Of a stretch of 64,000 nt of DNA, positions 46,002 to 61,984 are shown in pieces. The translations under genes were made by a program, and so were the position numbers. Source of the DNA: Bradymonadia bacterium. Lineage in GTDB: Bacteria > Myxococcota_A > Bradymonadia > UBA7976 > UBA1532. Within the stretch, counting starts at the first letter, position 1. Each line of letters starts with the position of its first letter. Location: positions 3,186 through 67,185 of the forward strand of contig JBILLN010000017.1 in the NCBI GenBank assembly GCA_044376085.1. The letters are read 5' to 3'. Below the pieces are notes generated by a model, which saw only the letters and a list, made by a program, of their open reading frames with translations, did not search any database and had not been told where the DNA came from.

Positions 46002-49000
46002 ATGCAGCCAGGCCAGGTCGTCGGCGACCGCTACCGCATCGAGCAACTCATCGGCGAGGGCGGCATCGGCCAGGTCTTCCGCGCCCGCGACCTCATGACC
46101 CGCGAGCTCGTGGCCCTGAAGGCGCTCCGCCCCGAGTTCGCGCGAGACGCCCGCATCAAGCGACGTTTCATGCGCGAGGCCCGGGCCGTCGCGCGCCTGC
46201 AGCATCCCCACATCGTACGGCTCTTCGCGTGCGGGGACAGCGACGACGCCCCGTACATCGCCATGGAGCTCATCGAGGGTCAGGCCCTCTCCGAGCACCG
46301 GGACCAGGGCCTGCATCTCGATACGCTGCTCCAGGTCATCGACCAGACGCTCGCAGCGCTCGCGTTCGCTCACGCCCGGGGCGTCGTCCATCGCGACGTC
46401 AAACCCGAGAACATCCTGGTCTCGTGGGTCGACCGCGGTCGGCGTCCGTTCGTCAAGTTGCTCGACTTCGGGTTCGCGCGCGTGGAGGGCGACCAGGACA
46501 TCAAGCTCACTCAGGTTCAGGGCGATGCCTTCGGAACGCCGCTGTACATGGCGCCCGAGCAGGCCTCGGCCAAGGGCAACGTCGGGCCCGAGACGGACCT
46601 CTACGCCATCGGCGTGATTCTGTTCGAGTTTCTGTCCGGCCAGCCGCCGTTCACGGGGGCACACGGGATGGCCGTCGCCCTCAAACACGTCATGGAGCCC
46701 GTCCCCGATCTGCGCGCGCGGGCGGGGCTGGCCATGCCCTTCGGACTCGAGGACGTCGTCCGCCGCGCCCTCGAAAAGGAGCCCCGCAGCCGGTGGCGAA
46801 CCGCTGCGGACCTGCGTCGGGCACTCGCACAGTTTTCCCAGGGCACGGAGTCGGCCCCGCCCGAGGACGACGCCGACGACCAGACCATGGCCGGTCCCGC
46901 CGGCCCGCCACCGCCCGTTTCACCCTTGGCCGGCGCGGCGCCGGCGATGCCCTTCGACGACGGGCCGCGCAGCGACCCCACCCTCGTCACGGGGCTCGGT
47001 CGGGGCCCGACGACCGGCGCGCATCCCGTCCCCCTGTTTCGCGCGCTCGAGCCGGAGCCCTCGGGCGCCGGTGTCGAGGAAGCCCTGGTGGCCGATCCGG
47101 ACACGCAGGCCCTCGTCGGTCGAGAAGCCGAACTCATGTGGCTGTGGGAGCGGGCCCGGGAGGTCTGCGACCGGGGGGAGGCGCGCATCGTCCTGCTGGG
47201 CGGCACGCCGGGCATGGGCAAACGTCGGCTCCTGAGCTGGCTCGAGGACCAGGTCGCGGAGGGAGCGTGGATGCTCCACGTCAGCGGGAGCCGACCGACC
47301 GCGCCCGACGCCGGCCCTCGGACGGACCTGCGAGCCCTCCTGGCCGCGGTTTTCGGCAGCCTGCCGGCCGAGCGCCGGCCCGCGGAGCAGATCATCCTGC
47401 AGATGCTCGAGCGGTGGGCGGGCATGCCCAGCGGGTTGCCCCGGCCCGAGCCGGCCATGCTGGGCGTCCTGGCGACGACGATGGCAGCCTGGCTGTGCCC
47501 GGCGCCCGGCGCGCTGGCCACGGACGAGATGGGAGAACTGCGCGGCGAAGCGCTGTACGCCCGCGCCCTGGAACTGCTGCAGATCGCCGCCCGCGAGCGG
47601 CCGGTGCTGCTGACCGTCGAGTCCATCGAGGACGCCGGCCACGAGACGTGCGGTTTCCTGGCCTGGGCGAGTCGATGGTTGCGGCGGGTCGAACTGCCCC
47701 TGCTCGTGGTGGCCGGGTACACCGTCGACGATGGCGGAGCAGCCCGGCACCCGATGGCCGGCGCCTTTGTCGGCTCGCTGTCCGCCGTCGGCGGCCCCGA
47801 GGTGCAGTCCCTCCTGCTCAGGCCCCTGGACGCGGCCACGGTCGCCGACCTCCTGGCCAGCATCGCACCGATCGACGCGACCGTCGCCGAAGCCATCGCG
47901 CGGCGGACCCATGGCAACCCGTACTTTGCCCGGGAACTGCTGCTGTGGGCCTCGCAGGCCGGGGAACTCGTCACGGAGCGCGGCCGGCTGGTGCTGTCGC
48001 GCAGCGCGCGGCCCCAGGCGTGGCCCACCTCGCTGCCGGAGACGCTGCTCCTGCGGACGGACGAGACGCTGGGGCGCAAGCCGGGGGGAGACGCCGCGCG
48101 CCGCGTTTTGGAGTGCTCGGCCTTGCTCGGCGAGCACTTCGAGTACGAGCTGCTCGTGGCGTTCATGGTGCCGTTGGTGGGCGACCGCGCCACGGTGGAG
48201 CGCGGCATCGAGCTTCTGCTGCACTGCAACATCTACGGGGAGTCGGGCACGCTGGAGGGCGATCGGCTCTTTCTGCGGCACGACGTGATGCTCGGTCCCC
48301 TGCGGGAGCGCCTCGCCGCCGGCGGGCAGCTCCCCCGACTCCATCGGCTGGCGGCCGATACGATGCTGCGGATCTACACCCGCAACCCCACCCCCTTCGC
48401 CGAGCCGATCGGCGCACATCTCGAGGCTGCGGGTGCGACGACGGAGGCGGCGCAGCAGTTCCAGCTCGCCGCGGCCGCGCGCCGCGAACACGGACAGCTC
48501 GCCGCCGCGGCGGATCTCCTCGAACGCGCGGACGCGCTGCTGGCGCAGTCGACGGAGGTCGGCGCAGACCTGAAACGTGCCGCGGGCTGGCTCGACCTGG
48601 GGGAGCTCGAGCTGCGGCGCGGGCAACAGCCTCGGGCACGAACCCTGGCGGGCCGGGTCTACACCTGGGCGCGGCAGAACGGTCAGGCGGGTCTCGAGGG
48701 CCGGGCGCTGCTGCTCGTCTCGGATCTCTTTCGTCGCCAGAACCAGCTCGGCGAGGCCGGGCGCGGGTACGCGCAGGCCCGGGCGGTTTTCGAACGGGCC
48801 CAGGATCGCGCCGGATACGCTCGATCGCTGCTGGGGGCGGCCATGGTGGAGCGGAGCCTCGGACGGGTGGAGTCGGCGGTCGAACTGTTCGAACTCGCCC
48901 GTCAGGCGATGGAGGCGGCCGGCGACCATCACGGCCTGGCCCGGGCCTGGCGGGGGCAGGGGGAGATTGCGCTGCGGATGGGGGAACTCCTGGCGGCGCG

Positions 49001-49715
49001 GGACCGCCTCGAGCTCGCACGGCAGGCCTACGGAACCGCCGGTGATACGCACGGCGTCACTTTTTGTCACTGGCTCCTGGGGGAGACGTTCCGGTTGCTC
49101 GGGCAGCCGGATCTGGCGGTCTCCTATTTCGAGGCGTCGCGTCGCGGGCACGAAGTGCTGCGGGACGACCTCGGGCGCGGGCGGGCCCACCTCTCGCTGG
49201 CGCGGCTCTTCCGGGACCGCGGTCTCTGGGCGGATGCCGAGTCGCACTTCGAGGGCGCGGTGCTGGCGTACGACGCGGCCGGCGATGCGGCCCGTGCGGC
49301 CGCTGCGCGCGCCGAACTCGGTCTCGGGGCGCTCCTCCAGCGCCGGTTCGACGCCGCGCGCGACCACCTCGGAACGGCGCTGGCGCATGTGCTGCAGTCG
49401 GGAGACGCCGACCGGGCGGTCGTGCTGCGGACCTCGCTGGCCTGGGTGTACGCCGAGCAGGGCGACGAAGCGCTCGCCGAACCGGAACTCCGGGCGGCCC
49501 TCGCCGCGGACGCCGCCCGACCGGTCGTGGATCCGGACTTCGCGCGAGCCCTCGAGGGCATCGCCGAGGTGGACCTCTACCTCGGCCGTCGACACCGGGC
49601 GGGCGCGCTGCTGCAGCGGGCCGCGGACGTCGCGGCCGCACTCGGTCAGCCGGCGGAGGCCGACCGCCTGCTGCGCAAACTGACGCTGCTCGGCCCACGG
49701 GGAGGACGGGGATGA
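46002..49715 (+). CDS. Ser/Thr protein kinase fused to a STAND-type NTPase and TPR repeats (PknK/AfsR-like architecture).
   Basis: The kinase motifs are GEGGIGQVF, VALKAL, HRDVKPENIL, DFGFAR and APEQ. The P-loop NTPase is LLGGTPGMGKRRLL. The C-terminal half is long TPR/alpha-solenoid. Confidence 0.8.
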   Translation: MQPGQVVGDRYRIEQLIGEGGIGQVFRARDLMTRELVALKALRPEFARDARIKRRFMREARAVARLQHPHIVRLFACGDSDDAPYIAMELIEGQALSEHRDQGLHLDTLLQVIDQTLAALAFAHARGVVHRDVKPENILVSWVDRGRRPFVKLLDFGFARVEGDQDIKLTQVQGDAFGTPLYMAPEQASAKGNVGPETDLYAIGVILFEFLSGQPPFTGAHGMAVALKHVMEPVPDLRARAGLAMPFGLEDVVRRALEKEPRSRWRTAADLRRALAQFSQGTESAPPEDDADDQTMAGPAGPPPPVSPLAGAAPAMPFDDGPRSDPTLVTGLGRGPTTGAHPVPLFRALEPEPSGAGVEEALVADPDTQALVGREAELMWLWERAREVCDRGEARIVLLGGTPGMGKRRLLSWLEDQVAEGAWMLHVSGSRPTAPDAGPRTDLRALLAAVFGSLPAERRPAEQIILQMLERWAGMPSGLPRPEPAMLGVLATTMAAWLCPAPGALATDEMGELRGEALYARALELLQIAARERPVLLTVESIEDAGHETCGFLAWASRWLRRVELPLLVVAGYTVDDGGAARHPMAGAFVGSLSAVGGPEVQSLLLRPLDAATVADLLASIAPIDATVAEAIARRTHGNPYFARELLLWASQAGELVTERGRLVLSRSARPQAWPTSLPETLLLRTDETLGRKPGGDAARRVLECSALLGEHFEYELLVAFMVPLVGDRATVERGIELLLHCNIYGESGTLEGDRLFLRHDVMLGPLRERLAAGGQLPRLHRLAADTMLRIYTRNPTPFAEPIGAHLEAAGATTEAAQQFQLAAAARREHGQLAAAADLLERADALLAQSTEVGADLKRAAGWLDLGELELRRGQQPRARTLAGRVYTWARQNGQAGLEGRALLLVSDLFRRQNQLGEAGRGYAQARAVFERAQDRAGYARSLLGAAMVERSLGRVESAVELFELARQAMEAAGDHHGLARAWRGQGEIALRMGELLAARDRLELARQAYGTAGDTHGVTFCHWLLGETFRLLGQPDLAVSYFEASRRGHEVLRDDLGRGRAHLSLARLFRDRGLWADAESHFEGAVLAYDAAGDAARAAAARAELGLGALLQRRFDAARDHLGTALAHVLQSGDADRAVVLRTSLAWVYAEQGDEALAEPELRAALAADAARPVVDPDFARALEGIAEVDLYLGRRHRAGALLQRAADVAAALGQPAEADRLLRKLTLLGPRGGRG

Positions 49716-52700
49716 GCGGCGGGGGCGAGCCGGGCGGGCTCGAGGCCGGCACGTTGCTGGGCGGGCGCTATCGGCTCGCCGAGATTCTCGGCCACGGCGG
49801 CACCGGCACGGTCTGGTCCGGGCTGGACCTCGGCGTCCATCGAGAAGTGGCCATCAAAGTGCTCCGCCCGGAGCTGACCCGCGACGCCCGCCTGCGCCGT
49901 CGCCTGCGCCGGGAGGCGCGGGCCGTCGCCCGGCTGGAACACCCCAACATCGTGCGCCTCTTCGGCATCGGCGACCTGCCCGACGGCAGCCCGTACCTGG
50001 CGATGGAGCGCGTCCACGGCGTGCCGCTGCACCACCTCCTGGCCCGCGGCCTCCCGTTGTCGCGGAGCGTGGCCGTCTTCGAACAGGTGCTGGCGGCGCT
50101 CGCGTTCGCACACGCCCGAGGCGTCGTTCACCGCGACCTCAAACCGCAGAACGTCCACGTCATGCGGGGGCCCGGGGGCGAGGACGTCGTCAAGCTCCTC
50201 GACTTCGGCTTCGCCCGGGTGGAGAACGACAGCGACGATGGGTTGACCGCCGCGGTGAAAGACGTTTTCGGCACGCCGACCTACATGAGCCCCGAGCAGG
50301 CCACGGGGGACCACGAGGTCGGTCCGCCGGCGGACCTGTACGCGGTGGGCGTCATGCTGTGGGAAGCCGTGTGCGGGGCGCCGCCGTTCACCGGGGCCAC
50401 CGGAACGGCCGTGGTCGTTCAGCACGTGACGGCGCCGCTGCCACCGTTCCTCCCGCGGGCCGACCTGCTCCCCCCGCACGGACTGGAAGCGGTCGTCCGG
50501 CAGGCTCTCGAGAAAGAACCCGTGCGCCGCCATGCCAGCGCCGCGGCGTTCCGGCGGGCGTTGCTCGCGGCATTCGAGGACGGGGACGCCGACGACGAGT
50601 CGTTCACGACGGTCAATGCCGTGACCTCGGTGACGTCCGTCATGACCAGCAGCCAGCCGCCCGCGTTCGAACGCACGAACACGGAGCCGGGCCTGACCAC
50701 CCTGGCAGAGGCGCGGGTGATCGACGCGCCGCGGGCGCCGGCGACGCCCGTGGGGGCGGGGGACCTGGGGCCGAGCCGGGACGATCTGCCCCTCGTCGGT
50801 CGCGAGTCGCTGCAGCGGTGGCTCTGGGAGCGGGCGGTCGATACGTGTCAGACGGGGCAGCCCCACTTCGTGCTCCTCGACGGCCCCGTCGGCATCGGGA
50901 AGAGCCGCCTGTGCGCCTGGCTTCATCAGACCATGGCCGAGGGCGGCTGGATGTGGCCATTGAAGGGCCGCCACCGGATCGGGAGCGGCGACGGTGGTCT
51001 GCGCGATGTCGTGCGGGCAGCGCTCGGTCTCCCGAGGCAGCCCGGCACGTTGGGTCGCGACGCGGTCCCGCAGGCGCTGGCGGAGCTCGATCCCGAAGGG
51101 GCGCTCGATCCGCAGCTCCTGACCCGCTGGCTCTGGCCGGTGCCCGAACGTCCGTGTCCACCCGGCTCGGCCGTGCGCCTGGTCGAGCAGCTCGCGCGGC
51201 GGCTGAGTCGGCGCCGACCGCTCTATCTCTGGCTGGACGACGTCCACCACGCCGACGCCGAGGCGTTCGTCATCTTCGATCACCTGGCGTCGAACCTGAC
51301 CGCGCGACCCGCTCCCGTGTTCGTCGTGGCGACGCGCCGGACGGACGCACCGGCGTCCGGGACGCCGGCCCTCGACGCGATGGCGGCCTTTCTGAAACGT
51401 CACCATGAGCGCATCGAGCTGCGCGAGGTGCCGCGCCTCGACGAGCGGGCCATTCAGGCGCTGGCCGCGCACGCGGCACCGCTCGATGCGAATGCCGTGG
51501 CGTTCGTCTCCGGTGCGGCCCGGGGCAACCCGCTGCATGCGCTCGAGCTCGTCCGCTATCTCCAGGACACCGGCACGCTCACGCCCGCCGGCATCCTCGC
51601 GCCGCAGGGTCGAGGCGCCGTGCCGCGCAGCCCGGTGGAGCTCGTCCGGGCGCGGCTCCAGGGCGCGCTGCACGGGCGCGATCCCGAGCTCGGCGCGCTG
51701 GCGGAGCGCCTCTCGCTCCTCGGCGGCGCCTTCCCGTTCGCCGCGGCCGAGACGGTCGCCCGGCGCATCGGACTCGACGCGGTGCGGCTCGATACCGGGC
51801 TCGAGGCGCTGGTGCGGATGGGCGTTCTGGCGGACGACGCGGCGGAGACCTACGCCTTCCGGCACGAGCTGGTCCGCGAGGCGCTCGCCGAGGAACTGGC
51901 CGACCGACCGGACGCGGCCACGGCGCACCTCGCGGTGGCCGAAGCGCTCCTGGCCGTCCACGGCGAGCGGTCGGGGGAGGTCGCGCTGGCGGTCGCGCGC
52001 CACTTCCGGATGGCCGGAGACGTCGCGCGGGCGGTCGAACGCCAGTTGGCGGGGGCGCGATACGCCCGGAGCGTCGGGCAGGGGACGGCGGCGGTCGCCG
52101 CCCACCAGGAAGCGGAGCGCTGGCTTTCGGAGGTCGAACCGACGCCCGCCCTTCAGGCCATGCTCGCCGACTGCTGGCGCGGCCTGGCCGAACTCGCCCT
52201 CGACCAGAACGATACGGACCGCGCGCTGCGCCTGGCCGAACGGTTGGAGACGTGGGCGCGCATGGTCCGCGATCACGGGCGCGCCGCCGCCGCGCTGCGG
52301 TTGCGGGGCGAGGCGCAGCTCGCGTCGGGCCGCTGGCTCGAGGCCGAGAAGCTGCTGGCCGACGCCCGCGCGCGCTTCGAGACCATGGGCGACGATCGCG
52401 TGGTCGCCCAGATCGATCTCTCCCTGGGGCGAGCGGCCCTCCAGTCGAGCCGCGTCGAGGTCGCCCAGGCCTGTTTCGCCCGGGCAGCGGGGCGGTTCGC
52501 GGCGGCCGGCGACGGCGCGGGGGAGGCGGCCTGTCGGCGCGCGCTGGGAGAACTGGCCGTGCGCGCGGGCGACCGACCGACGGCCACCCGCCTGTTGACC
52601 GAAGCGGCCGCCATGGGGGAAGCCGCCCTGGATCACCGGCTGGTCGGTCAGGCCGCGTGGCGCCTCGGGGAGCTCCTGCGACAGGGGGGACAGGCCGAAG

Positions 52701-53269
52701 CGGCGGTCGGCCGGTATCAGCAGGCCGTGGAGAACTGCGAGGCCGTGGGCGACCTGGCCGGGCTCGGGCGCGCCCTTCGCGGGCTCGGAGATACCGAGCG
52801 GATGCTGGAGCGGGTGACGGCCGAGAGCAGCTACCGCCGGGCCGTCGAGGTCTTCGAGTCCGTCGGCGACCAGTTCCAGCTCGCGATCTGCCACACCCAG
52901 CTCGGTCGCATGGCCGCCGAACGCGATGACCTCATCACCGCGGAGGCCGCCTTCGAACGGGCATTGCGCACGCTCGAGAGCTTCGACGATCCCGTCCGGG
53001 TGGGCGTGTTGCACGCCTATCTGGCGCGCATCGCCGACCGGCGTGGGGACCGTGTCGCGCGGGACCACCGCCTCCAGGTGGCCCTGCGCTTCGACGCCCA
53101 CCGTCCGCTCGTGGTCCGTGAATGGCCGATGATCCTCGAGGACGTCGCGGCGCATCTGGTCGCGGAAGGGGAGCCGCACCGGGCTCGGGCGCTCCGGGAG
53201 CGGGCGGCTCAGATCTGGACGGCGCTCGGCCGGCCGGACGACGCGGCGCGCTGTCTCGCGGGAGGGTGA
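49712..53269 (+). CDS. Ser/Thr protein kinase fused to a STAND-type NTPase and TPR repeats, a paralog of the upstream gene.
   Basis: The kinase motifs are GHGGTGTVW, VAIKVL, HRDLKPQNV, DFGFARV and SPEQ. The P-loop is LLDGPVGIGKSRL, followed by TPR. The ATG overlaps the upstream stop (ATGA), with GGAGGA upstream. Confidence 0.8.
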   Translation: MSGGGEPGGLEAGTLLGGRYRLAEILGHGGTGTVWSGLDLGVHREVAIKVLRPELTRDARLRRRLRREARAVARLEHPNIVRLFGIGDLPDGSPYLAMERVHGVPLHHLLARGLPLSRSVAVFEQVLAALAFAHARGVVHRDLKPQNVHVMRGPGGEDVVKLLDFGFARVENDSDDGLTAAVKDVFGTPTYMSPEQATGDHEVGPPADLYAVGVMLWEAVCGAPPFTGATGTAVVVQHVTAPLPPFLPRADLLPPHGLEAVVRQALEKEPVRRHASAAAFRRALLAAFEDGDADDESFTTVNAVTSVTSVMTSSQPPAFERTNTEPGLTTLAEARVIDAPRAPATPVGAGDLGPSRDDLPLVGRESLQRWLWERAVDTCQTGQPHFVLLDGPVGIGKSRLCAWLHQTMAEGGWMWPLKGRHRIGSGDGGLRDVVRAALGLPRQPGTLGRDAVPQALAELDPEGALDPQLLTRWLWPVPERPCPPGSAVRLVEQLARRLSRRRPLYLWLDDVHHADAEAFVIFDHLASNLTARPAPVFVVATRRTDAPASGTPALDAMAAFLKRHHERIELREVPRLDERAIQALAAHAAPLDANAVAFVSGAARGNPLHALELVRYLQDTGTLTPAGILAPQGRGAVPRSPVELVRARLQGALHGRDPELGALAERLSLLGGAFPFAAAETVARRIGLDAVRLDTGLEALVRMGVLADDAAETYAFRHELVREALAEELADRPDAATAHLAVAEALLAVHGERSGEVALAVARHFRMAGDVARAVERQLAGARYARSVGQGTAAVAAHQEAERWLSEVEPTPALQAMLADCWRGLAELALDQNDTDRALRLAERLETWARMVRDHGRAAAALRLRGEAQLASGRWLEAEKLLADARARFETMGDDRVVAQIDLSLGRAALQSSRVEVAQACFARAAGRFAAAGDGAGEAACRRALGELAVRAGDRPTATRLLTEAAAMGEAALDHRLVGQAAWRLGELLRQGGQAEAAVGRYQQAVENCEAVGDLAGLGRALRGLGDTERMLERVTAESSYRRAVEVFESVGDQFQLAICHTQLGRMAAERDDLITAEAAFERALRTLESFDDPVRVGVLHAYLARIADRRGDRVARDHRLQVALRFDAHRPLVVREWPMILEDVAAHLVAEGEPHRARALRERAAQIWTALGRPDDAARCLAGG

Positions 53270-53281: not shown

Positions 53282-53287
53282 GGCGCC

Positions 53288-53956
53288 TCAGAACGAGCTG
53301 CGCAGACCCAGGCTGACCGGCACGGTATTGAGGTTCAGCGTGGCATCGTCGCCATAGGTCGTGGTCGTGTAGTAGCCCACGGCCGTGAAGGCGGCGACGC
53401 TGTCGTTGAACTTCCAGCCCGCGCCGAAGTTGAACCGCAGGCTCCAGCCGAAGCGCGTGTCGCGCGTCGGGTCGCCCTTCACCGCTTTGTCGTTGCCCAC
53501 CCAGATCGTCGGCCCCAGACCGAGCAGGCCGTCGAACGAGAGCCCCTGCCAGATGGGGAACGTCATGCGGGCCCGCAGGTGGGGGCTCATGATGAGGCTG
53601 CGTTCGTCGGGCGCGCCCTTCTCGTCGGAGCCGGCCCAGACGAACATGTACTCGCCGCCGATGCCGAAGTTCCGGCCGAGCATCTTGTCGAAGCCGGGGA
53701 CGATGCCGAGCGTGGCCTTGCCGTCGGACTCGACGACGTCACCCCCGTCGGGCTCGGCCTCGAACGTCGACCCGAGGCCGAGCAGGAACTCGAGGGACGC
53801 GGCCAGTTTCGGTGCGGCCTCGGCGGATTCGCTCTTGGGCTCGTCGGCCTCCCCCTTGCCCTTGGCAAGGGCGGACTGCGGGGCGGCGAGCGCCGTCCAC
53901 GCGGCGAACGAGAGAGCGAAGACGGCGGGGGATTTTCGGGCAGTGATCGGGCTCAT
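53288..53956 (-). CDS. Outer-membrane beta-barrel protein (OmpA-like/porin-like small barrel).
   Basis: The signal peptide is MSPITARKSPAVFALSFAAWTALAAPQSALA. Alternating hydrophobic beta-strands end in a terminal LGLRSSF (C-terminal Phe). AGGAG is 6 nt upstream of the chosen ATG. Confidence 0.55.
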   Translation of the reverse strand: MSPITARKSPAVFALSFAAWTALAAPQSALAKGKGEADEPKSESAEAAPKLAASLEFLLGLGSTFEAEPDGGDVVESDGKATLGIVPGFDKMLGRNFGIGGEYMFVWAGSDEKGAPDERSLIMSPHLRARMTFPIWQGLSFDGLLGLGPTIWVGNDKAVKGDPTRDTRFGWSLRFNFGAGWKFNDSVAAFTAVGYYTTTTYGDDATLNLNTVPVSLGLRSSF

Positions 53957-54065
53957 GAAGACTCCTGGCATGCGGCGCGCGTTTTAACAGCCCGGGGGTG
54001 GCGCGTGCAATCGCCGGGGCCGTGCTTACCTTGCCCTCGTCCACCCAACGACGAGAGAGTCGCCG

Positions 54066-56678
54066 ATGAATCCGAACAAGATGACGAATGCCGTGCGCGA
54101 GGCCCTCGCCTTCGCCGTCGACGAGGCCCGCCGGGACGGCGCGCCGGAGCTCGTGACCGAGCACGTGCTGCGGGCGCTCCTCGGCCAAACCGAGGGCGTG
54201 ACGCGCTCCCTGCTCCGCGAGATCGGGGTCGAGCCCGCGGCGCTGCTCCGGGCCGTCCAGGAGAACCTCGCCCGCAAGCCCAAGGTCAAGGGAGACAGCC
54301 GGCTCAGCGAGAGTCCGGGTCTGGTCCGGGCGCTCGAACGCGCCGACGACGAGGCCCGCAAGATGGGGGACGAGTACGTCTCCGTCGAGCACGTCCTGCT
54401 GGCGCTCGCCGACGAACGCGAGGGCGCGGGCGAGGTGCTGCGCAAGCACGGCGTGACTCGGGATGCGCTGATGTCCGCATTGCAGGCCGTCCGGGGCAAT
54501 ACCCGGGTCACGGATCCCGAGCCCGAGGGCAAGTACGACGTGCTCCGCAAGTACACCCGGGACCTGACCGAGATGGCCACCCGCGGCAAGCTCGACCCCG
54601 TGATCGGCCGCGACGAAGAGGTGCGCCGCGTCATGCAGGTGCTGCAGCGCCGCACGAAGAACAATCCGGTGCTCATCGGCGAGCCCGGCGTCGGCAAGAC
54701 GGCCATCGTCGAGGGGATCGCCCAGCGGATCGCCGCCAACGACGTGCCCGAAGGCCTGCGCGACCGGCGACTGCACAGTCTCGATCTCGGCGCGCTCATC
54801 GCCGGGGCCAAGTACCGCGGGGAGTTCGAAGAGCGCTTGAAGGCGGTCCTGAAGGAGGTCGCGGCCGCCGAGGGCCAGGTCATTCTCTTCATCGACGAAC
54901 TGCACACCCTCGTCGGCGCCGGCGCGAGCGAAGGCGCGATGGACGCCTCGAACATGCTCAAACCCGCGCTGGCTCGCGGCGAGCTGCGCTGCATCGGCGC
55001 GACCACGCTGGACGAGTACCGCAAGCACATCGAGAAGGACGGGGCCCTCGAACGTCGGTTCCAGCCCGTGTTCGTGGGCGAGCCCAGCATCGAGGACACC
55101 ATCTCGATCCTCCGCGGCCTGAAGGAGAAGTACGAGATTCACCACGGCATCCGCATCCAGGACGGTGCGCTCGTGGCCGCTACGAAACTCTCGCAGCGGT
55201 ACCTGCCGGACCGACAGCTTCCCGACAAGGCCATCGACCTGATGGACGAGGCCGCGAGCCGCATCCGCATGCAGCTCGACAGCCGGCCCGCGGCCATCGA
55301 CGATGTGGAGCGGCGCATCACGGGCCTGGAGATCGAGGCCGTCAGCCTCCGACAGGAGAAGGACGACGCGTCGAAGCAGCGCCTCGCCGCCCTGGAGCGC
55401 GAACTGGCGGACCTTCGGGAGAAGAGTGGCGCCGTGAATGCGCGCTGGTCTGCCGAGAAGGGCGCGCTGCAGCGGACCAACGGGCTGCGCGAACAGCTCG
55501 AGCAGCTCGGCTCGGAGGAGGACCGGCTGCGCCAGATGCTGCCCACCGTCGTCGAGTACCAGGCGCGCGAGCGCATGTACCAGCGTGCGGGTGAACTCCA
55601 GGCGCGCAAGCTCGGGTTGCAGCGAGAGCTCGCAGAGGCGGAAGGTCGGCTCGAGGCCATCCAGCGGGAGGGCAGCTTCCTGCGCCAGGAGGTCACCCCG
55701 GACGACATCGCGGCGGTCGTCGCCCGCTGGACGGGCATCCCGGTCGAGAAGATGCTGGAGGGTGAGCTCGAGCGGCTCACCCAGATGGAGGGGCGCCTGC
55801 ACCGCCGCGTCGTGGGACAGAACGAAGCGGTCACCGCGGTGGCGAACGCCGTCCGACGCGCCCGGGCGGGGTTGTCCGATCCCAACCGCCCCATCGGCAG
55901 TTTCCTGTTCCTGGGGCCCACGGGCGTCGGCAAGACCGAGCTCGCGCGCAGCCTCGCGGACTTCCTGTTCGACGACGAGCGGGCCACGGTGCGCATCGAC
56001 ATGTCCGAGTACATGGAGAAGCACAGCGTCTCGAGGCTCATCGGCGCGCCGCCCGGCTACGTGGGCTACGACGAGGGCGGCCAGCTCACCGAAGCGGTCC
56101 GACGCCGGCCCTACGCGGTGCTGCTGCTCGACGAGGTCGAGAAGGCCCACCCGGACGTGTTCAACGTGCTGCTCCAGCTCCTCGACGACGGTCGATTGAC
56201 CGACGGACAGGGGCGCACGGTGGACTTCCGCAACGTCGTCGTCATCATGACGAGCAACCTCGGAAGTGATGTCATTCAAGCCTACGACGACGGGCACAAG
56301 CCGGACATGGACGCGCAGGTCCTCGCCGTCGTGCGGGCGCACTTTCGGCCCGAGTTCCTCAACCGGGTCGACGATATCGTGGTCTTCGAGCGCCTCGGCC
56401 GGCAGCACATCGACGCCATCGTCGATCTGCAGCTCGAGCGGTTCCGCAAACGCCTCGCCGAGCGGCAGCTCACGCTCACGCTCAGCGAGGACGCCCGTCG
56501 CCTGCTCGCCGACGAAGGCTACGATCCGGCCTACGGCGCCCGGCCGCTGAAGCGGGCCATCCAGCGCCTGCTCGAGAACCCGCTGGCCATGCGTCTGCTC
56601 GCCGGTGACTTCCCGGAACGCACGGACATCTTGGCGGAGCGGGATGGGAGCCGTCTCGTGTTCCGGGCCGCGCGCTGA
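54066..56678 (+). CDS. clpB: Chaperone ClpB (Hsp100 disaggregase).
   Basis: The N-domain is present. NBD1 has GEPGVGKT. The long coiled-coil M-domain is present. NBD2 has GPTGVGKTE, the sensor-2 GAR and the RPLKRAIQ motif. Length is 870 aa. Confidence 0.95.
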
Positions 56679-57012: not shown

Positions 57013-57023
57013 GCGGCGTCGCG

Positions 57024-57914
57024 TCAGCGGGCGATGACGCGGAAGTCGGCGGCCTGATCGAAGAAGCCGCCCTGGGTCGTCGCCGTCGGCGCGGCGGCGG
57101 ACTGCTCTTCGGCCGAGAGGCCGAGGGGCTGGGCCAGCAGGGCGCGGAACCAGGTGCGGACGTCCCAGGTGACCACGAGGACCTGGGCATCGGGCGCGAC
57201 CTCGACCTGCCCCGCGAAGAACTCGTAGGCGCGGGTGGAACGCACGTAGATGCGCTCGGCGGCGGCTTCGGCCGCACCGGACTCGGCCTTGCCGCGCGCA
57301 GGCGTGGGGGTCGGCTCGGCGGGCGTCGGTGTGGGTTCGGCGGGCGTCGGCGTGGGTTCGGCCGGAGTCGGCGTCGGCTCACCGGGAGCGTCGCCCGGGT
57401 TCGCCGGGGTCGGCGTGGGTTCGGCAGGCGTCGGCGTCGGCTCCGCGGGCGTCGGCGTCGGCTCGTCGTCGGCCTTGCCCCGTGCCAGCGAACCGACGTA
57501 TCCGCCCGTGACCTCGACGGAGGTGCCGTCGGCGTCGGGTCGCACCCGCACGAGCAGGCGATACCGCCCGGGCTCGGCCAGTGTCAGGGCGCCGTCCGGC
57601 ACGACGGTCGACGGAATGCCATCGACGAGGTCGAACGCGATGCCGACGGCGTCGCCCACCGCGTCGTCGTCGCCCTCAGGGAGGAGGTAGAGGTCCGCCT
57701 CGAAGTGGACGTCCGTGACGAGCAGGTCGTCGTACACGTCGGCGAGGCCCACGAGTTCGACCCGAGGGGCCAGCGTCAGGGGGGCCTCGTCACCGGTGGG
57801 GGCGGGCCCCGCCGCCTCGGCCGGCGTGCCCGAAACCGGTGCACGCGCCTCGTCGGTGCCACAGGCCGACAGGGCCAGGGCCATCAGCAGGGACGTGCCG
57901 AGCATGCGGTTCAT
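57024..57914 (-). CDS. Lipoprotein with an (EPTPTPA)n repeat linker.
   Basis: The signal peptide ends in the LSAC lipobox. About seven EPTPTPA heptads are central. The start overlaps the stop of the upstream sigma-54 activator gene by 4 nt. Confidence 0.6.
   Translation of the reverse strand: MNRMLGTSLLMALALSACGTDEARAPVSGTPAEAAGPAPTGDEAPLTLAPRVELVGLADVYDDLLVTDVHFEADLYLLPEGDDDAVGDAVGIAFDLVDGIPSTVVPDGALTLAEPGRYRLLVRVRPDADGTSVEVTGGYVGSLARGKADDEPTPTPAEPTPTPAEPTPTPANPGDAPGEPTPTPAEPTPTPAEPTPTPAEPTPTPARGKAESGAAEAAAERIYVRSTRAYEFFAGQVEVAPDAQVLVVTWDVRTWFRALLAQPLGLSAEEQSAAAPTATTQGGFFDQAADFRVIAR
57296..57475 (-). repeat. Tandem 21-nt repeats encoding the (PTPTPAE)n linker.
   Basis: Units such as ggcgtcggcgtgggttcggcg and ggcgtcggcgtcggctccgcg recur at 21-nt period. 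They also generate spurious plus-strand ORFs (57250-57690). Confidence 0.6.
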
Positions 57915-60900
57915 GAGTCGCCGACCTCGCGTTTCAGGTCACCCAATGCTGGGATCGCATGGATTATCTGCGAAAGTCGAGGTCTTTTCATCCCCAAACG
58001 CTCGGCGGCGCGGGTGATGTTGCCGCCGGAAGCGCGCAGGGCTCGTGCGATCGCCTCGAACTCGATGCGCTTCTTGAGCTCGAAGAGGCCGCCTTCCGAG
58101 GCGACGGCGCGATCGAGCCAGTCCGAATCGAAGACGCTGCCGGCGCCCTCCGGGACGGGCATGGGGGTGGCGAGGCGGGCGAGGGTCGCCGAGTAGTCGT
58201 CGTCGTCGTCCGAGCGCGGGCCGACCCGCGGGGGGACGACTTCGGCCGCGTCGCTCCTCGTCTCTTCGGGGTCCGGTTCGGCTGGATGCGCAGAGGGTGG
58301 TGCCGGGTCGGGGGGGCCGTCGGCGGGCGCCGGCGGCAGACCCCGGTGTTCGAGAAGCTCGGCGGCGGAGAGGACCGCCTGTTCGTCCGGCGGGCGGAAG
58401 AAGTCCCCGAGCTCGCGCAGTTCGCTCAGGCCGATGGTACCGCCGTCGGCGAACAACGCCGCGCTTCGGACCACGTTCTCGAGCTCCCGGACGTTGCCCG
58501 GCCAGTCGTGCTGCATGAGGCTGGCCAGGGCCTCGGGTGAGACCCGGATCGCCGGTGCGGCCGCGCCACCCGCCTCGGGGGCGGCCTGTGACCGCCGCGC
58601 CAGGAAGTGCTCGACGAGCAGGGGAATGTCCGTTCGGCGGTCCCGCAGAGACGGCAGCTCGATGATGACGCCGCGGAGACGGTAGTAGAGGTCGGCCCGG
58701 AACTCGCCGCGGCGGACCATTTCCTCCAGCGTGCGGTGCGTGGCGCACAGGACCCGGACGTCCACCGACAGCGTCTCCGAGCCGCCGACGCGCTCGAACG
58801 TCCCCTCCTGGAGAACCCGGAGCAGCGCGACCTGCGTATTCGGGGAGATGTCACCGATCTCGTCCAGGAAGAGCGTGCCGGTATCGGCGAGCTCGAACCG
58901 GCCCTTCTTGCGCGCCACGGCACCGGTGAAGGCGCCCTTCTCGTGACCGAAAAGCTCGCTGAGGAGCAGGGTCTCGACGAATGCCGAGCAGTTGACCTTG
59001 ACGAAAGGCCCCTCGGCCCGCGGGCTGTTGGCGTGGAGCGCGGCGGCGACGAGCTCCTTGCCCGTGCCGCTCTCTCCGCGGATCAGGACGATCGCATCGC
59101 TGCCCGCGACCCGGTCCAGTGCGTTGAAGACCGTGAAGAGGGCCGGGGCCCGGCCGAGAATCTGCGGATACCGCTCACCCCAGTGAGGCTGGTACCGCGG
59201 CGCGCGGAGGGCGCGGCCGTCGCCGGCGGGCGCGGGCGGGGCGAGCAGAGGGTGGTGGGGTCCGATGCCTGCCCGGACGCGTCGGAGCGCCGCCCCGATC
59301 TGACGGCGATCGGGGGCCTCCAGGTAGCTGGTGCGCAGCCCTTCGGGCAGGCGCCGGGCGACGCGCTCGATCAGTTCGGCGGCTTCCCCGAGGGCCTGGA
59401 GGGCTGCCGCGCGATCCCGGGCCTCCCACGCGAGCCGGGCCTCGAGGAAGAGGGCGCGCCACCGGGTCTCCTGGTCCCCGGCCGTCTGGGCTGCGGCCTG
59501 GGCGGCCGCGGCTTCCGCCCTCGCCGTGGCGGCATCCCCGCGTTTCCGGGCCAGCGAGGCCCGGCTCAGAAGGAGCGCCGCGGCCCGCATCGGATCGGGG
59601 GTCGAGGCCGGGCCCTCGGTCGCGCGGGCGAGCGTGGCCTCGGCATCGTCGAGCGCGTCGGCCTCGATCTGGAGATCGGCCAGGCCGATGAGCAGGGAGA
59701 GCCGGCTCAGCGCCTGCGCCGGCTCCGTCGCGGCCAGCGCCGCCCGGTAGTGCTGCTCGGCCCGCGCGCGGTCGCCGGCCGCCGCGGCCAGTTGCGCGTC
59801 CAGCAGGGCGCATTGCGCCTCGAGCGAGCGCAATCGGGCCCGCCGGATCTGGCTGCGGCTGATCTCGGTGAGGCGCCGTGCGCGCTCGGCGTCTCCCATC
59901 ACGAGGTACAGCTCCGCCAGGTTCAGGGCGGTGTGGGCGAGGTGATGCCCCTGGCCGAGCTTGCGGAACGCCTGCGTCGAGTGGTGGTACATCGCCAGCG
60001 CCGCGCCGAAGTCCTGCCGCCGGTGGAAGAGGACGGCCAGGTTGTCCAGGGAGATGGCCAGATTTCGGAGATCCCCGGCGTCTGCGGCCAGGCGTCGGGC
60101 CTCGGCGTAGCGTTCGGCGGCGACCTCGGCTTCTCCGCTCTGCAGCGAAACGATGCCGAGGTTGATGAGCGAGCGGATCTGCGGCGTGATGGCCCGCAGA
60201 CGTCGCGCCGACTCCAGGTTGTGCGTGAAGAGGGCCCGGGCGGTCTCGAGCCGCTCCCGGGCCAGGTGGACCTTGCCCAACGTATTGCGCAGCGACAGCG
60301 TCTCGGCGTCTTCGAGGTCGCCGGCGGCGGCGAGGCCCGCCTCTGCCCGGCTCTCGGCGCGCCCCGGGTCCCCCGCCTGCCACGCGATCTCCGCCGCCAG
60401 CGCCCCGGCCGCGTGCCGGAGGGCATCGGGCAGGGGACCGCTCTCGGCGGCCGCCACCGCGGCGGTGGCGCGGTCGACCCAGCCGGCGGTGAGGCAGAGG
60501 CGTGCGAGGCGCAAGTGGACCGTGGCGCGGTCCGCTTCGTCTCCGGCGAGGGCCGCGCGCTGCTCCAGGGCCTCCTCGGCAGCCCGGAACTCGCCCGTGC
60601 GCGCGTACAGTTCGGAAAGCCGGTCGAAGATGTCCCGACGGAGCGGACCGTCGGTCGACGTGACGATCTGCGTCAGCAGCTCGGCGGCACGGGCATGTGC
60701 GAACGCGGCCTCGAGGCGGTCCGCGGCGGCGAGCGCGAACGGGACGGCTTCGGCGGCCGCGGCGCCGGCGAGGTAGTGCGTCGCGACCTCCTCGGCCTCG
60801 ACACCGCGTCCCGCGAGCGGGACGAGGCGTTCGGCGATGTGGCGATGAAGGGCGGCCCGCTCCACGGGGTCGAGGGCCTCGTACCAGCACTCCCGCGCCG

Positions 60901-61984
60901 CGGCGGGCGCGAAGTGGAACCGCACTTCGCCGCGGTCCAGCACGCGGCCGACGAGTCCGCGTTCCTGCAGGGCCTGCAGCGCGACGAGGGGGGCGGAGCC
61001 GGCGGGCAGCACGTCCCGCAGTTGGTCGAGGGACACCGGCCGCCCCAGAACGGCGAGGGCGTCGAGGATCGGACGGTGCTCCGGCGCGACCTCGGCGAAC
61101 CGGCGGGCCCAGAGCGTGTCCGGGGAGTCTCCCAGGCCGGAGAGGAGCTGCCCGAGGGCCGCCGGATTCCCGCCGGAGGCCCGGAGCATGCGCTCGACGA
61201 CGGCGTCGGACTGGAGATAGGCCCTCAGCGCGTCGCGATCGAGGGGGCCCAGCACGAGCGCTTCGATCGCCGAGGAGGCCCGACCGAGCTCCAGCAGGGG
61301 CCGGGTGGTCTCCACCTCCCGAAACGACAGGACGAGCAGACCCCGGAACGCGCGCGACTCCTCGCCCCCCTCCGGCGCCCAGTCGAAGGCCGGATCCGCC
61401 ATGAGGTTCTCGATCAGGTAGCGGATCAGGGCCAGCGTCGCGACGTCCGCGCGGTGCAGATCGTGGAGGTGAAGCACCGGCGGGCGCGCCCCCATGAGCT
61501 CGACCACGGCGCGACGCACGACCTCGAAGAAGTGCAGCCGCAGGTCGTCCGCCCGGGCCGCCTGAGGCAGGTCTCCCGGACCCGGGAGACCCGCGATGAG
61601 GGACAGGGCGCGCTCCGTGGCCGGCGCCGGTCGACCGAGATCCGCGAGGGCGCCGGCCGCCTGCCCCAGGAGTTCCACGAGGGAGCCGTAGGGGCGATGA
61701 TCCGTCTGCCGACACCGGCCTTCGAAGACGACCTCGCCGGCGGCCCGCATCGAGCGCTTGAAGGCGTCGAGCAGGTGCGACTTGCCGATGCCCGCCGGAC
61801 CCACGACCAGCGCGCATCGACCCCGGCCCACTGCCCGGGCCTCGTCGAACAGACTCCGGAGGCGCGTGAGTTCGCGGGTCCGGCCGAACGGCGCCGCGTC
61901 CTCGCCGCGAGGGGGCGTCGGCGCACCCGCGGGGGCGGCCATCGCGGTGGCGGGCGAGCGGTCTCCTCGATCCTGGGGGCTCAC
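57911..61984 (-). CDS. Sigma-54-dependent transcriptional activator with an N-terminal STAND-type NTPase plus TPR sensor module (1357 aa).
   Basis: The N-terminal P-loop is ALVVGPAGIGKSHLL with a Walker B-like LHLHDLHRAD. A roughly 600-aa TPR region follows. The central sigma-54 AAA+ domain has GESGTGKE, EKGAFTGAV and LFLDEIGD. A C-terminal Fis-type HTH is present (NITRAAERLGMKRPRLSQ). The start is GTG at 61984 or the ATG at 61942. Confidence 0.75.
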   Translation of the reverse strand: MSPQDRGDRSPATAMAAPAGAPTPPRGEDAAPFGRTRELTRLRSLFDEARAVGRGRCALVVGPAGIGKSHLLDAFKRSMRAAGEVVFEGRCRQTDHRPYGSLVELLGQAAGALADLGRPAPATERALSLIAGLPGPGDLPQAARADDLRLHFFEVVRRAVVELMGARPPVLHLHDLHRADVATLALIRYLIENLMADPAFDWAPEGGEESRAFRGLLVLSFREVETTRPLLELGRASSAIEALVLGPLDRDALRAYLQSDAVVERMLRASGGNPAALGQLLSGLGDSPDTLWARRFAEVAPEHRPILDALAVLGRPVSLDQLRDVLPAGSAPLVALQALQERGLVGRVLDRGEVRFHFAPAAARECWYEALDPVERAALHRHIAERLVPLAGRGVEAEEVATHYLAGAAAAEAVPFALAAADRLEAAFAHARAAELLTQIVTSTDGPLRRDIFDRLSELYARTGEFRAAEEALEQRAALAGDEADRATVHLRLARLCLTAGWVDRATAAVAAAESGPLPDALRHAAGALAAEIAWQAGDPGRAESRAEAGLAAAGDLEDAETLSLRNTLGKVHLARERLETARALFTHNLESARRLRAITPQIRSLINLGIVSLQSGEAEVAAERYAEARRLAADAGDLRNLAISLDNLAVLFHRRQDFGAALAMYHHSTQAFRKLGQGHHLAHTALNLAELYLVMGDAERARRLTEISRSQIRRARLRSLEAQCALLDAQLAAAAGDRARAEQHYRAALAATEPAQALSRLSLLIGLADLQIEADALDDAEATLARATEGPASTPDPMRAAALLLSRASLARKRGDAATARAEAAAAQAAAQTAGDQETRWRALFLEARLAWEARDRAAALQALGEAAELIERVARRLPEGLRTSYLEAPDRRQIGAALRRVRAGIGPHHPLLAPPAPAGDGRALRAPRYQPHWGERYPQILGRAPALFTVFNALDRVAGSDAIVLIRGESGTGKELVAAALHANSPRAEGPFVKVNCSAFVETLLLSELFGHEKGAFTGAVARKKGRFELADTGTLFLDEIGDISPNTQVALLRVLQEGTFERVGGSETLSVDVRVLCATHRTLEEMVRRGEFRADLYYRLRGVIIELPSLRDRRTDIPLLVEHFLARRSQAAPEAGGAAAPAIRVSPEALASLMQHDWPGNVRELENVVRSAALFADGGTIGLSELRELGDFFRPPDEQAVLSAAELLEHRGLPPAPADGPPDPAPPSAHPAEPDPEETRSDAAEVVPPRVGPRSDDDDDYSATLARLATPMPVPEGAGSVFDSDWLDRAVASEGGLFELKKRIEFEAIARALRASGGNITRAAERLGMKRPRLSQIIHAIPALGDLKREVGDS

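Follow-up and report, generated by a model that had tools for sequence, protein, structure and literature searches.

A contig of an uncultured Bradymonadia bacterium (a MAG of the Myxococcota) was found to carry a sigma-54 activator and two STAND-type Ser/Thr kinases, all within the 64-kb stretch of DNA analysed here, referred to as the window. The three proteins, together with their characteristic motifs, had been described in an earlier note on this DNA and were recovered in the translations. The genes of the region are as follows.

45573..45866, + strand: ACP-like (PP-binding) small gene, first of the K1-K2 transcription unit (gene call, Pfam)
46002..49715, + strand: K1, a Hanks kinase with a degenerate STAND NOD and TPR, 1237 aa (Pfam, orthologue motifs)
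49712..53269, + strand: K2, a Hanks kinase with a canonical STAND NOD and TPR, 1185 aa (Pfam, orthologue motifs)
53288..53971, − strand: OMP beta-barrel gene, member of the conserved block (Pfam OMP_b-brl, synteny)
54066..56678, + strand: clpB, member of the conserved block (Pfam)
57024..57914, − strand: lipoprotein gene with lipobox LALSAC and EPTPTPA repeats (sequence, synteny)
57911..61984, − strand: the activator, a sigma-54 bEBP of 1357 aa counted from a GTG (Pfam)

The K2 ATG at 49712 and the stop codon of K1 share the letters ATGA, and the same four letters join the lipoprotein ATG to the activator TGA. The PP-binding match of the ACP-like gene was weak, and a Pfam search of the lipoprotein gene returned no match. 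The activator may instead start at an ATG at 61942, giving 1343 aa, because a 100%-identical database copy (P0001) has this length. Its position downstream of the kinases, given in the earlier note as 5 kb, was refined to 4.6 kb past the K2 end and on the opposite strand, with the OMP gene, clpB and the lipoprotein gene in between. Four Hanks kinases and one PrkA are encoded in the window, from which rpoN is absent.

The gene order ACP-K1-K2-OMP-ClpB-lipoprotein-activator was conserved as a block in the related loci L001-L003, L081, L137, L138 and L140, with identities as low as 47-50%. The ACP-like gene was also found in L137-L140, and the lipoprotein gene downstream of the activator was kept in the orthologous loci. 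In L141, K1-K2 occurred with no activator nearby, and distant members of the activator family had different gene neighbours.

Both kinases matched Pkinase, AAA_16 and TPR_12 in Pfam (4.6e-46, 7.3e-09 and 1.1e-19 for K1; 2.3e-42, 2.2e-16 and 2.1e-21 for K2), with Pkinase bit scores of 157.8 and 145.6, respectively. The K1 kinase domain spans residues 11-265 and its AAA_16 match residues 371-570, the latter scoring 36.8 bits against a cut-off of 32.6. The catalytic motifs were intact in both translations (VALK, HRDVKPEN, DFG and APE in K1; VAIK, HRDLKPQN, DFG and SPE in K2). Motif states were read across 30 K1-type and 16 K2-type orthologues. The K2 NOD showed canonical motifs (GIGKS, LDDVHHAD, GNP and FRHE), including the WHD histidine. 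The K1 P-loop, GMGKRR, has no Ser/Thr after the Lys and its Walker B, TVESIE, lacks the Asp-Asp; GNP and RHD are retained, so the WHD histidine is present. Degenerate Walker A and B motifs were a trait of the whole K1 clade. The two proteins align at 34.7% identity over 1252 aa (E 3e-111), and by this alignment are full-length tandem paralogues. As read from these sequences, K1-K2 is an old, co-transcribed pair of Hanks kinases in which the nucleotide switch is canonical in K2 and degenerate in K1. M. tuberculosis PknK is an example of a Pkinase-AAA_16-TPR kinase, and K1 and K2 have exactly this STAND-type Ser/Thr kinase architecture, with more than 1100 relatives at E <= 1e-40. Such kinases form one main class of bacterial STAND proteins (PMC6468293), and no description of a conserved tandem pairing of kinases with canonical and motif-degenerate NODs was found in the literature searched.

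The activator comprises a MalT-like NOD, an arm and TPR region, a flexible linker, a sigma-54 AAA+ domain, a long linker and a Fis-type HTH, in that order.

60905..61891, − strand: NOD (NBD, HD and winged-helix domain), residues 32-360
59273..60904, − strand: arm and TPR superhelix, the presumed sensor, residues 361-904
58412..59158, − strand: sigma-54 interaction AAA+ domain with lid and GAFTGA, residues 943-1191 (Pfam)
57980..58069, − strand: HTH_8 (Fis-type), DNA-binding, residues 1306-1335 (Pfam 1.9e-07)

Pfam matches of the regulatory module were AAA_16 (1.3e-26, residues 32-193) and TPR_12 (4.2e-10), a TPR_MalT match falling below the cut-off; a disordered linker of ~35 residues follows the TPR superhelix. 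The effector matched Sigma54_activat (8.5e-68, residues 943-1108, 227.7 bits against a cut-off of 20.2), AAA_lid_14 (1.5e-20) and HTH_8 (31.1 bits against a cut-off of 22), and GAFTGA, Walker A GESGTGKE and Walker B FLDEIG were all present in the translation. The domain searches suggested in the earlier note thus yielded Pkinase, AAA_16 and TPR in both kinases and AAA_16, TPR, Sigma54_activat and HTH_8 in the activator. An AlphaFold model of the activator module (pLDDT 90) showed NBD-HD-WHD followed by the TPR region. Its best structural matches were MalT, PH0952 and Apaf-1, with PH0952 (PDB 6MFV) as the top Foldseek match (E 1.4e-12). With repeats as the presumed sensor behind the NOD and the effector at its C-terminal end, the protein has a STAND layout. 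Membership in the MalT/LAL family was rejected for lack of a GerE match in Pfam, and membership in the large SARPs of AfsR type for lack of a Trans_reg_C or BTAD match.

Over the C-terminal two thirds of its layout, the activator is built like the classical bEBPs (NtrC, NifA, XylR/DmpR, PspF and NorR), with Sigma54_activat including GAFTGA, lid and HTH_8. Their regulatory domain is a receiver, GAF, PAS, V4R or FHA domain of 120-250 residues, whereas that of the activator consists of ~900 residues of NOD and TPR and is itself a putative P-loop oligomerisation domain. As a general principle, the N-terminal domain of a bEBP controls hexamer assembly or ATPase activity (e.g. PMC2941729). The activator module resembles the NOD-arm-sensor STAND protein MalT, activator of the E. 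coli maltose regulon, in fold, with a sequence similarity too low for phmmer against PDB sequences. In MalT, sigma-70 RNA polymerase is recruited by a C-terminal LuxR/GerE effector HTH; in the activator, the effector consists of the sigma-54 AAA+ domain, as a second ATPase, and a Fis-type HTH. AfsR of Streptomyces (SARP-NOD-TPR) also fuses an AAA_16-type NOD and TPR to a transcription-activating effector, and, apart from other sigma-54 activators, the sequences nearest to the activator are SARP-AAA_16-TPR proteins. AfsR has its effector at the N-terminus, working with sigma-70-type (HrdB) RNA polymerase, while that of the activator is C-terminal and of sigma-54 type. The AfsR NOD-TPR inhibits the effector domain, ATP relieves this inhibition, and the protein is under the control of the Hanks kinase AfsK (PMC10936776). 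PH0952 of Pyrococcus horikoshii provides a solved closed, ADP-bound NOD-arm-TPR resting state, but it is archaeal and has an N-terminal ArsR-type HTH effector.

The switch residues of the activator differ from those of these proteins. Its NBD carries Walker A GPAGIGKS and Walker B VLHLHDLHRAD, and the GxP motif of the HD is G272-N-P274. The Walker A sequence was present in 13 of 15 close family members, and GxxGxGK[ST] and GxP were invariant in the activator and its orthologues to ~46% identity. Walker B reads hhhhHDLHRAD throughout the activator clade versus hhhhDDLHWAD in other AAA_16 proteins, leaving one acidic residue, and the WHD column holds F-A-P, F-S-P or F-A-R in place of F-x-H. A check of this alignment column found no WHD (MHD-like) histidine in the clade. 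Both features set the activator apart from MalT. PH0952 keeps the histidine, and its H382 touches the ADP beta-phosphate (PMC6468293); AfsR likewise retains the F/Y-H-D switch motif, whose mutation renders it autoactive (bioRxiv 10.64898/2026.09.02.748808). With His in the position of the first Walker B Asp and no histidine in the WHD, it is doubtful that the activator has a canonical ADP/ATP switch. Its NOD probably binds nucleotide without cycling like a canonical STAND protein. Across the three proteins, the P-loop is canonical in K2, kept in the activator and degenerate in K1.

Control by a partner protein has precedents among bEBPs in the anti-activators PspA, acting on PspF, and NifL, acting on NifA. 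The activator NOD could be a pseudo-NTPase scaffold with no nucleotide switch, its TPR serving only as a large platform for such a partner. Besides the clade-wide loss of the two switch residues, GxxGxGK was missing from 28 of 81 full-length family representatives when searched by regular expression, about a third of these more distant members. The absence is also visible in the alignment, so that nucleotide binding may be dispensable, with a scaffold role left for the module. The strict retention of Walker A and GxP in the activator and its orthologues, in contrast, points to selection still acting on nucleotide binding there, and for this protein we regard the scaffold as rather unlikely.

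Homology searches assigned the activator to a group of its own. A search with its module gave 110 matches with E <= 1e-30, and 90 of the best 150 representatives (50% identity) carried a sigma-54 AAA+ domain at the C-terminus. Almost all of these relatives, which make up at least 90 clusters (50% identity), come from metagenomes. The closest relatives of the module were other sigma-54 activators, not kinases; the nearest non-activator relatives were SARP, kinase, cyclase and LuxR fusions. A close-pattern scan of 185,579 species representatives found three full-length relatives, and no description of a NOD-TPR sigma-54 activator was found in the literature searched, which bears out the earlier suspicion that this architecture is uncommon. 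By domain content and predicted fold, the activator is a member of an uncharacterised bEBP family in which a MalT-like NOD-arm-TPR replaces the receiver, GAF or PAS domain. The common ancestry of the three modules, for which the earlier note suggested an alignment as a test, held for the NODs: in hhalign, the activator-family NOD profile matched K2 with 97% probability (E 9e-11, 362 columns) and K1 with 92% probability (E 6e-7). With BLAST, the similarity between activator and kinase modules (E ~3e-4) was confined to the NOD, and the TPR parts gave no significant alignment. The idea of one module on three outputs thus survives in that all three proteins have an AAA_16-type NOD followed by TPR, but by these comparisons the activator version is a distant homologue of the K1 and K2 modules, with deep homology only. 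Since the activator has sigma-54 activator relatives of its own, it is unlikely that the three proteins share a ligand or that domains were shuffled recently. The locus holds three separate MalT/AfsR-type (Pfam AAA_16) STAND proteins, not one sensor used thrice.

A link between activator and kinases was suggested by the DNA upstream of the ACP-like gene. The sigma-54-type sites and the palindrome of the window are listed below.

45527..45542, + strand: sigma-54-type promoter candidate CGGCCCGAGGTTTGCA with GG-N10-GC spacing, 30 nt upstream of the ACP start
45435..45455, no strand assigned: palindrome GGTGGCCACC, a candidate enhancer (UAS), ~75-90 nt upstream of the promoter candidate
43071..43086, − strand: sigma-54-type promoter candidate GGGCACGCATCTTGCT, 42 nt upstream of a radical-SAM/SPASM gene (called start 43028)
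41908..41923, − strand: sigma-54-type promoter candidate CGGCACGGGAGTTGCC, 115 nt upstream of a second Met-zincin-like gene

A sigma-54-type site equivalent to the first of these stands before the ACP start codon, at a distance of 24-46 nt, in each of the five orthologous loci compared, with diverged flanks. The site score was reached in 0, 2, 24, 6 and 4 of 2000 shuffles at the five loci, a chance of 0-1.2% per locus. The palindrome, followed by a second half-site GGCCACC, occurs once in the window, and similar palindromes stand at equal relative position in L137, L139 and L140 (four of five loci overall), although the motif is short and GC-rich and looser versions are frequent in this GC-rich DNA. 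Neither a terminator nor a sigma-70 site was found between ACP and K1, and an upstream alignment showed no sigma-54-type site before clpB. Sigma-54-like sites were not enriched across the window as a whole. Those noted earlier at 41.9 and 43.1 kb were genuine matches; the latter is the top-scoring site of the window and has a counterpart, GGGCACGTACCTTGCT, 90 nt upstream of a Met-zincin operon in L138.

For the conserved promoter candidate before ACP-K1-K2, with its upstream palindrome, the syntenic activator is the obvious candidate driver. The two might nevertheless be neighbours through chromosome collinearity, with the activator acting elsewhere and another activator serving the ACP promoter. 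Possible targets in that case are the co-transcribed lipoprotein gene or distant genes. Synteny spans the whole readable region, and extends to clpB, a housekeeping gene, as well as to the RING-like and Met-zincin genes on the flanks, as expected from plain collinearity; L139 retains the promoter and kinases with no activator within 6.5 kb; and given the number of kinases in the window, one near any gene is unsurprising. However, the block persists where many proteins are only 27-50% identical, and conservation extends to a sigma-54 promoter and the palindrome before it, ~12 kb away from a sigma-54 activator gene. We consider a lack of functional connection possible but not probable.

A further connection would be phosphorylation of the activator NOD by K1 and K2, tuning its activity by analogy with AfsK-AfsR, where phosphorylation of AfsR alters ATPase activity and oligomerisation (PMC10936776). 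The kinase and activator genes are conserved neighbours and both kinases retain VA(L/I)K, HRD, DFG and (A/S)PE, but Pfam revealed no FHA or other phospho-binding domain in the activator, and the proposal draws on analogy only, with no phosphosite inferable from the sequence. It appears quite improbable, and would be compatible with the cascade as a feedback loop. Least probable of all is the multi-output sensory node of the earlier note, in which one ligand-gated STAND switch type would drive two kinases and sigma-54 activation in parallel from the same input: shared AAA_16 and TPR domains, homologous NODs and synteny of the three genes to ~47% identity speak for it, but the NOD-confined similarity, the activator's separate family, switch residues that differ in each of the three proteins, and the split into transcription units of opposite orientation, clpB and the OMP gene lying in between, make it very unlikely, and the conserved promoter before the kinase operon leans to a transcriptional hierarchy instead.

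As a whole, the locus is best explained, with confidence only a little better than even, by three separate STAND proteins, one of them from a family of NOD-TPR-gated activators, whose link to the kinases is transcriptional. A transcriptional link is the most likely one between activator and kinases, and a cascade is the best reading of the locus, preferred over a shared sensor. Myxococcota genomes hold many sigma-54 activators, and the activator is therefore paired with the ACP promoter by proximity alone; STAND assemblies are usually not hexamers, and it cannot be taken for granted that one would template a hexameric AAA+ ring. The analysis shows the domain content and fold of the proteins, the state of their motifs, the size of the family, the synteny and the conservation of the promoter; that gating works through oligomerisation, what kind of ligand is sensed and which activator serves which promoter are what we infer for this system. 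Autoinhibition and activation are established for STAND proteins (PMC6468293, PMC4381067). In the proposed cascade, the signal would be a ligand of the TPR sensor, probably a protein or peptide, whose binding would release autoinhibition and/or drive NOD-mediated self-association. The NOD-TPR module would thereby control the assembly of the C-terminal sigma-54 AAA+ domains, whose motifs are intact, into an active hexamer, whose ATP hydrolysis would then open sigma-54 promoters, and the STAND-type activator would drive the ACP-K1-K2 operon from its sigma-54 promoter.

The two tandem kinases and the sigma-54 activator described in the earlier note were all present, with translations identical to those quoted there, and Pfam searches agreed with its domain assignments, placing AAA_16 and TPR domains in all three proteins and Sigma54_activat and HTH_8 in the activator.

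Kinase and activator genes with their Pfam domains
46002-49715, K1, Hanks-type kinase of 1237 aa: Pkinase, AAA_16, TPR_12
49712-53269, K2, Hanks-type kinase of 1185 aa: Pkinase, AAA_16, TPR_12
57911-61984, minus strand, activator, N-terminal module: AAA_16 at residues 32-193 (E 1.3e-26), TPR_12, TPR_MalT
57911-61984, minus strand, activator, C-terminal part: Sigma54_activat at residues 943-1108 (E 8.5e-68), AAA_lid_14, HTH_8

The G+C content of the window was ~70%, and its sequence matched a JGI metagenome contig (3300044911) of 226,740 bp. The stop codon of K1 overlapped the ATG of K2 in the sequence ATGA, and K2 was separated from the activator by a minus-strand OMP beta-barrel gene, plus-strand clpB and a lipoprotein gene whose ATG overlapped the activator stop codon. 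K1, K2 and the activator are not a single transcription unit. The lipoprotein gene (57024-57914, minus strand), translationally coupled to the activator, encoded tandem EPTPTPA repeats without a Pfam match and was kept downstream of the activator in relatives at 41-86% identity; in P0014, a distant member of the activator family, a small gene with a similar overlap came next. Divergent from the activator, a gene at 62060-62899 (plus strand) encoded a membrane-anchored protein with a weak match to prokaryotic RING fingers, and this RING-like gene was kept beside the activator at 35-91% identity. The lipoprotein gene and clpB were 345 bp apart, and a possible short ORF in this gap (56700-57012, plus strand) received no coding flag in a GC3 screen. 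Three more kinase genes, two of Hanks type and one of PrkA type, lay at 9810-11744 (minus strand), 16719-18038 (plus strand) and 13832-16075 (minus strand).

The earlier note had interpreted the locus as a node in which one STAND-TPR module drives three outputs. K1 and K2 were paralogues from end to end (34.7% identity over 1252 residues, E 3e-111). The N-terminal 935 residues of the activator matched the post-kinase parts of K1 and K2 only weakly by BLAST, with an E value of about 3e-4 confined to the nucleotide-binding part (NOD), and the TPR parts gave no significant BLAST alignment. In hhalign, the NOD profile of the activator family detected both K2 (97% probability, E 9e-11, 362 columns) and K1 (92% probability, E 6e-7). 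The three modules therefore do share ancestry, but a remote one that goes back to the AAA_16 family. The proposed architecture and its rarity stood, whereas the single shared module was wrong, the activator module being remote from the kinases and closest to those of other activators.

The distribution of such activators was surveyed in protein and genome collections. In a search of 5.8 billion proteins, P0001-P0014 and P0016 all carried AAA_16, TPR, Sigma54_activat and HTH_8, and the next relatives of the module, at 20-30% identity, were SARP, kinase, cyclase and LuxR fusions. An exhaustive HMMER search of 1.84 billion representatives returned 110 matches at E <= 1e-30; among the best 150 matches, 90 had a sigma-54 AAA+ domain at the C-terminal end, usually containing GAFTGA, and only 9 had a kinase domain. 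Family members were nearly all metagenomic singletons, and among 185,579 species-representative genomes a close-pattern scan picked out three full-length relatives. The taxonomic range rests on a few named relatives, the nearest labelled Myxococcota, Myxococcales and Bradymonadia MAGs. A protein homologue search with a 15-sequence NOD profile returned short, generic AAA_16 proteins and none from the family, and the matches listed by a metagenome-contig scan with a closer family alignment were all generic AAA_16 proteins at 25-34% identity. The STAND-sigma-54 activators therefore form a genuine, diverse, rare and uncharacterised family, not a recent local domain swap. A literature search that covered few subscription-journal papers found no sigma-54 activator described as having an N-terminal STAND, AAA_16 or TPR domain. 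One relative, P0082 (1487 aa), combined AAA_16, TPR, GAF, Sigma54_activat and HTH_8; its first residues resembled the tail of a kinase domain truncated at the contig edge, in which case the whole protein would be a kinase-STAND-GAF-sigma-54 fusion.

STAND proteins are recognised by an NBD-HD unit fused to a STAND-specific winged-helix domain (WHD), followed by an arm and a repeat sensor, with the effector at one end (PMC6468293). The AlphaFold2 model of activator residues 1-935 (pLDDT 90.3, pTM 0.86) showed the same domain order.

Elements of the AlphaFold2 model of the activator
residues 56-61, 86-90, 170-174, 216-221 and 240-244: strands of the P-loop NBD
residues 250-297: helical domain
residues 301-358: three helices and a beta-hairpin
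up to residue 904: all-helical arm and TPR region
between the TPR region and the sigma-54 domain: disordered linker

A phmmer comparison of the N-terminal module with PDB sequences gave weak TPR matches only. The activator clade kept GxxGxGK[ST] and the GxP motif. Its Walker B read hhhhHDLHRAD, in contrast to hhhhDDLHWAD in 55 other AAA_16 proteins, and the WHD histidine was absent (F-A-P instead of F-x-H). In PH0952 the equivalent histidine contacts the beta-phosphate of ADP (PMC6468293), and its clade-specific loss matters because mutation of the equivalent histidine motif renders AfsR (bioRxiv 10.64898/2026.09.02.748808) and plant NLRs autoactive. By its modelled fold and these motif states, the activator module is STAND-derived with a MalT-like fold, and its nucleotide switch is probably not canonical. 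A doubtful alternative is that the activator NOD would act as a pseudo-NTPase scaffold; among full-length family representatives, a regular-expression count found an intact GxxGxGK[ST] in 45/81 and no GxxGxGK in 28/81. A subclade of relatives (P0099, P0106, P0112, P0130 and P0153) lacked the P-loop lysine and Ser/Thr, as in HGPRGVWTD and HTPWGGGAD, and retained the remaining NOD scaffold and the sigma-54 domain.

A K1-seeded search separated the kinases into two orthologous groups that occurred as tandem pairs on the same contigs. The Hanks catalytic residues were kept in K1 and K2. K2-type proteins kept GK[ST], hhhhDD, GNP and F-x-H-E, and K1-type proteins carried GMGK[RS]R or GMGRRR together with hhhhE[SG]xE, with GNP and the histidine mostly kept. 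Pkinase-STAND-TPR proteins are a known class (PMC6468293), and a literature search found no description of a conserved pair with one canonical and one degenerate NOD. The pairing recalls sensor/helper NLR pairs.

Comparison with related loci in other contigs showed that the order RING-like gene, activator, lipoprotein gene, clpB, OMP gene, K2 and K1 was kept in L001, L002, L003 and L081, with activator identities of 82%, 75% and 58% in the first three. In L081 the identities were 50% for the activator, 68% for ClpB, 37% for K2 and 35% for the RING-like protein. L137, L138 and L140, reached from K1 orthologues of 47-54% identity, had the order Met-zincins, abhydrolase, ACP, K1, K2, OMP, ClpB, hypothetical protein and activator; L139 kept only ACP-K1-K2-OMP and L141 only K1-K2. 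Activator-family members at about 30% identity lay in other gene contexts. The association of activator and kinases is therefore conserved in one clade and is not obligatory. It is possible, though we consider it improbable, that the two have no functional link: since the conserved block includes the housekeeping gene clpB, plain collinearity could explain the order, and with four Pkinase genes in 64 kb, a kinase beside any other gene carries less significance.

Genes upstream of the kinase unit
33052-41792, minus strand, tandem pair of very large genes, for products of about 1500 and 1399 aa, whose sole match is a short one to Met-zincins (DUF4953/astacin-like)
about 44397-45374, minus strand, alpha/beta hydrolase, called on the source contig

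Sigma-54-like sites were not enriched in the window as a whole (4 against 2.6 expected; 12 against 20 in shuffles), so they carry weight only through position and conservation. A candidate site, CGGCCCGAGGTTTGCA (45527-45542), lay 30 nt upstream of the ACP-like gene heading the K1-K2 unit, and equivalents were found in L137 (CGGCAAAACGCTTGCA), L138 (CGGCCCGAGGCTTGCA), L139 (CGGCAAGAGAATTGCA) and L140 (CGGCAAGCGTCTTGCA), ending 24-46 nt before the ACP start codon in unalignable flanks. In dinucleotide shuffles of each 100-nt upstream region the score was reached in 0, 2, 24, 6 and 4 of 2000, and 0.5% of the 100-nt stretches of the window held such a site. No terminator or sigma-70-type promoter was found between the ACP gene and K1. 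GGTGGCC/GGCCACC palindromes stood about 60-90 nt upstream of the promoter candidate in four of the five loci (for example GGTGGCCACC in the window, the 18-bp CCGGTGGCCGGCCACCGG in L140 and GGGTGGCCATTGGCCACCC in L139). The palindromes are no more than suggestive, since so GC-rich a motif often occurs in looser form. The previously proposed 43.1 kb site, GGGCACGCATCTTGCT, preceded the called rSAM start codon by 42 nt, and a near-identical counterpart preceded the Met-zincin operon of L138 by 90 nt; a search for the GGTGGCC-type palindrome ahead of the rSAM and Met-zincin promoter candidates found none. These conserved candidate sites make sigma-54 dependence likely for the kinase operon and for the rSAM/zincin operon beside it.

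From the RING-like gene to K2, no conserved sigma-54 site was found within the block in five loci. As a target of the activator clpB was rejected, its upstream region having no GG-N10-GC site; an invariant GTGCTTA heptamer, not a sigma-54 site, preceded clpB by about 45-70 nt in each of five loci (window 53972-54065, L001, L002, L003 and L081), with CGTGCAATCGCC ahead of the heptamer in three of them. A third sigma-54-like site, TGGCACGATCGTCGCA (44375-44390, minus strand), stood 13 nt before the called glycosyltransferase start codon, closer than a normal leader allows, and the region upstream of the L140 GT gene yielded no counterpart. The large Met-zincin genes adjoined the ACP-K1-K2 block in L137, L138 and L140, with sigma-54-like sites upstream of them. 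The cluster at 42015-45866 comprised a radical-SAM/SPASM enzyme, a GT4-type glycosyltransferase, an alpha/beta hydrolase and the ACP-like gene, and its rSAM and GT genes were missing from some orthologous loci. Possibly this cluster is a small cassette, controlled by sigma-54, for modification or for a natural product.

In MalT, PH0952 and AfsR, the NOD-arm-TPR unit holds the effector inactive until the sensor binds ligand and the NOD changes state (PMC4381067, PMC6468293, PMC10936776). By analogy, the activator module would keep its effector off until a ligand reaches the sensor and the NOD switches, and would thereby control whether the intact sigma-54 AAA+ domain can assemble or act as an ATPase. 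The activator is then a candidate driver of the predicted sigma-54 promoter of the STAND kinase pair, and synteny and promoter conservation fit such a cascade better than the shared-sensor node. That the kinases instead phosphorylate the activator, in the manner of AfsK and AfsR, seems unlikely. Tentatively, the activators could form a distinct class of enhancer-binding proteins in which a MalT-like oligomerisation module without the canonical ADP clamp licenses the sigma-54 AAA+ hexamer, the activator directly switching on the sigma-54-dependent operon of a heteromeric kinase pair with one canonical and one pseudo-NTPase STAND. If true, the cascade would have three tiers consisting wholly of NLR-like proteins, and the kinases might in turn feed back on the activator. 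For testing, the conserved promoter with its palindrome offers a concrete target.

The roles proposed here are predicted from sequence in an uncultured host, and each of the two building blocks is well known by itself. Enhancer-binding proteins are a textbook case of transcription control through regulated assembly of an AAA+ ring, and the inputs known for them are, to our knowledge, small sensor domains. With at least 90 clusters and a 900-residue NLR-like NOD-TPR input, the present family would add a new input logic, and it makes one ask how a single polypeptide couples two different ATPase modules that both oligomerise. Sigma-54 activation would also join the effectors of MalT/AfsR-type bacterial relatives of NLRs, previously LuxR, SARP, kinase and cyclase.
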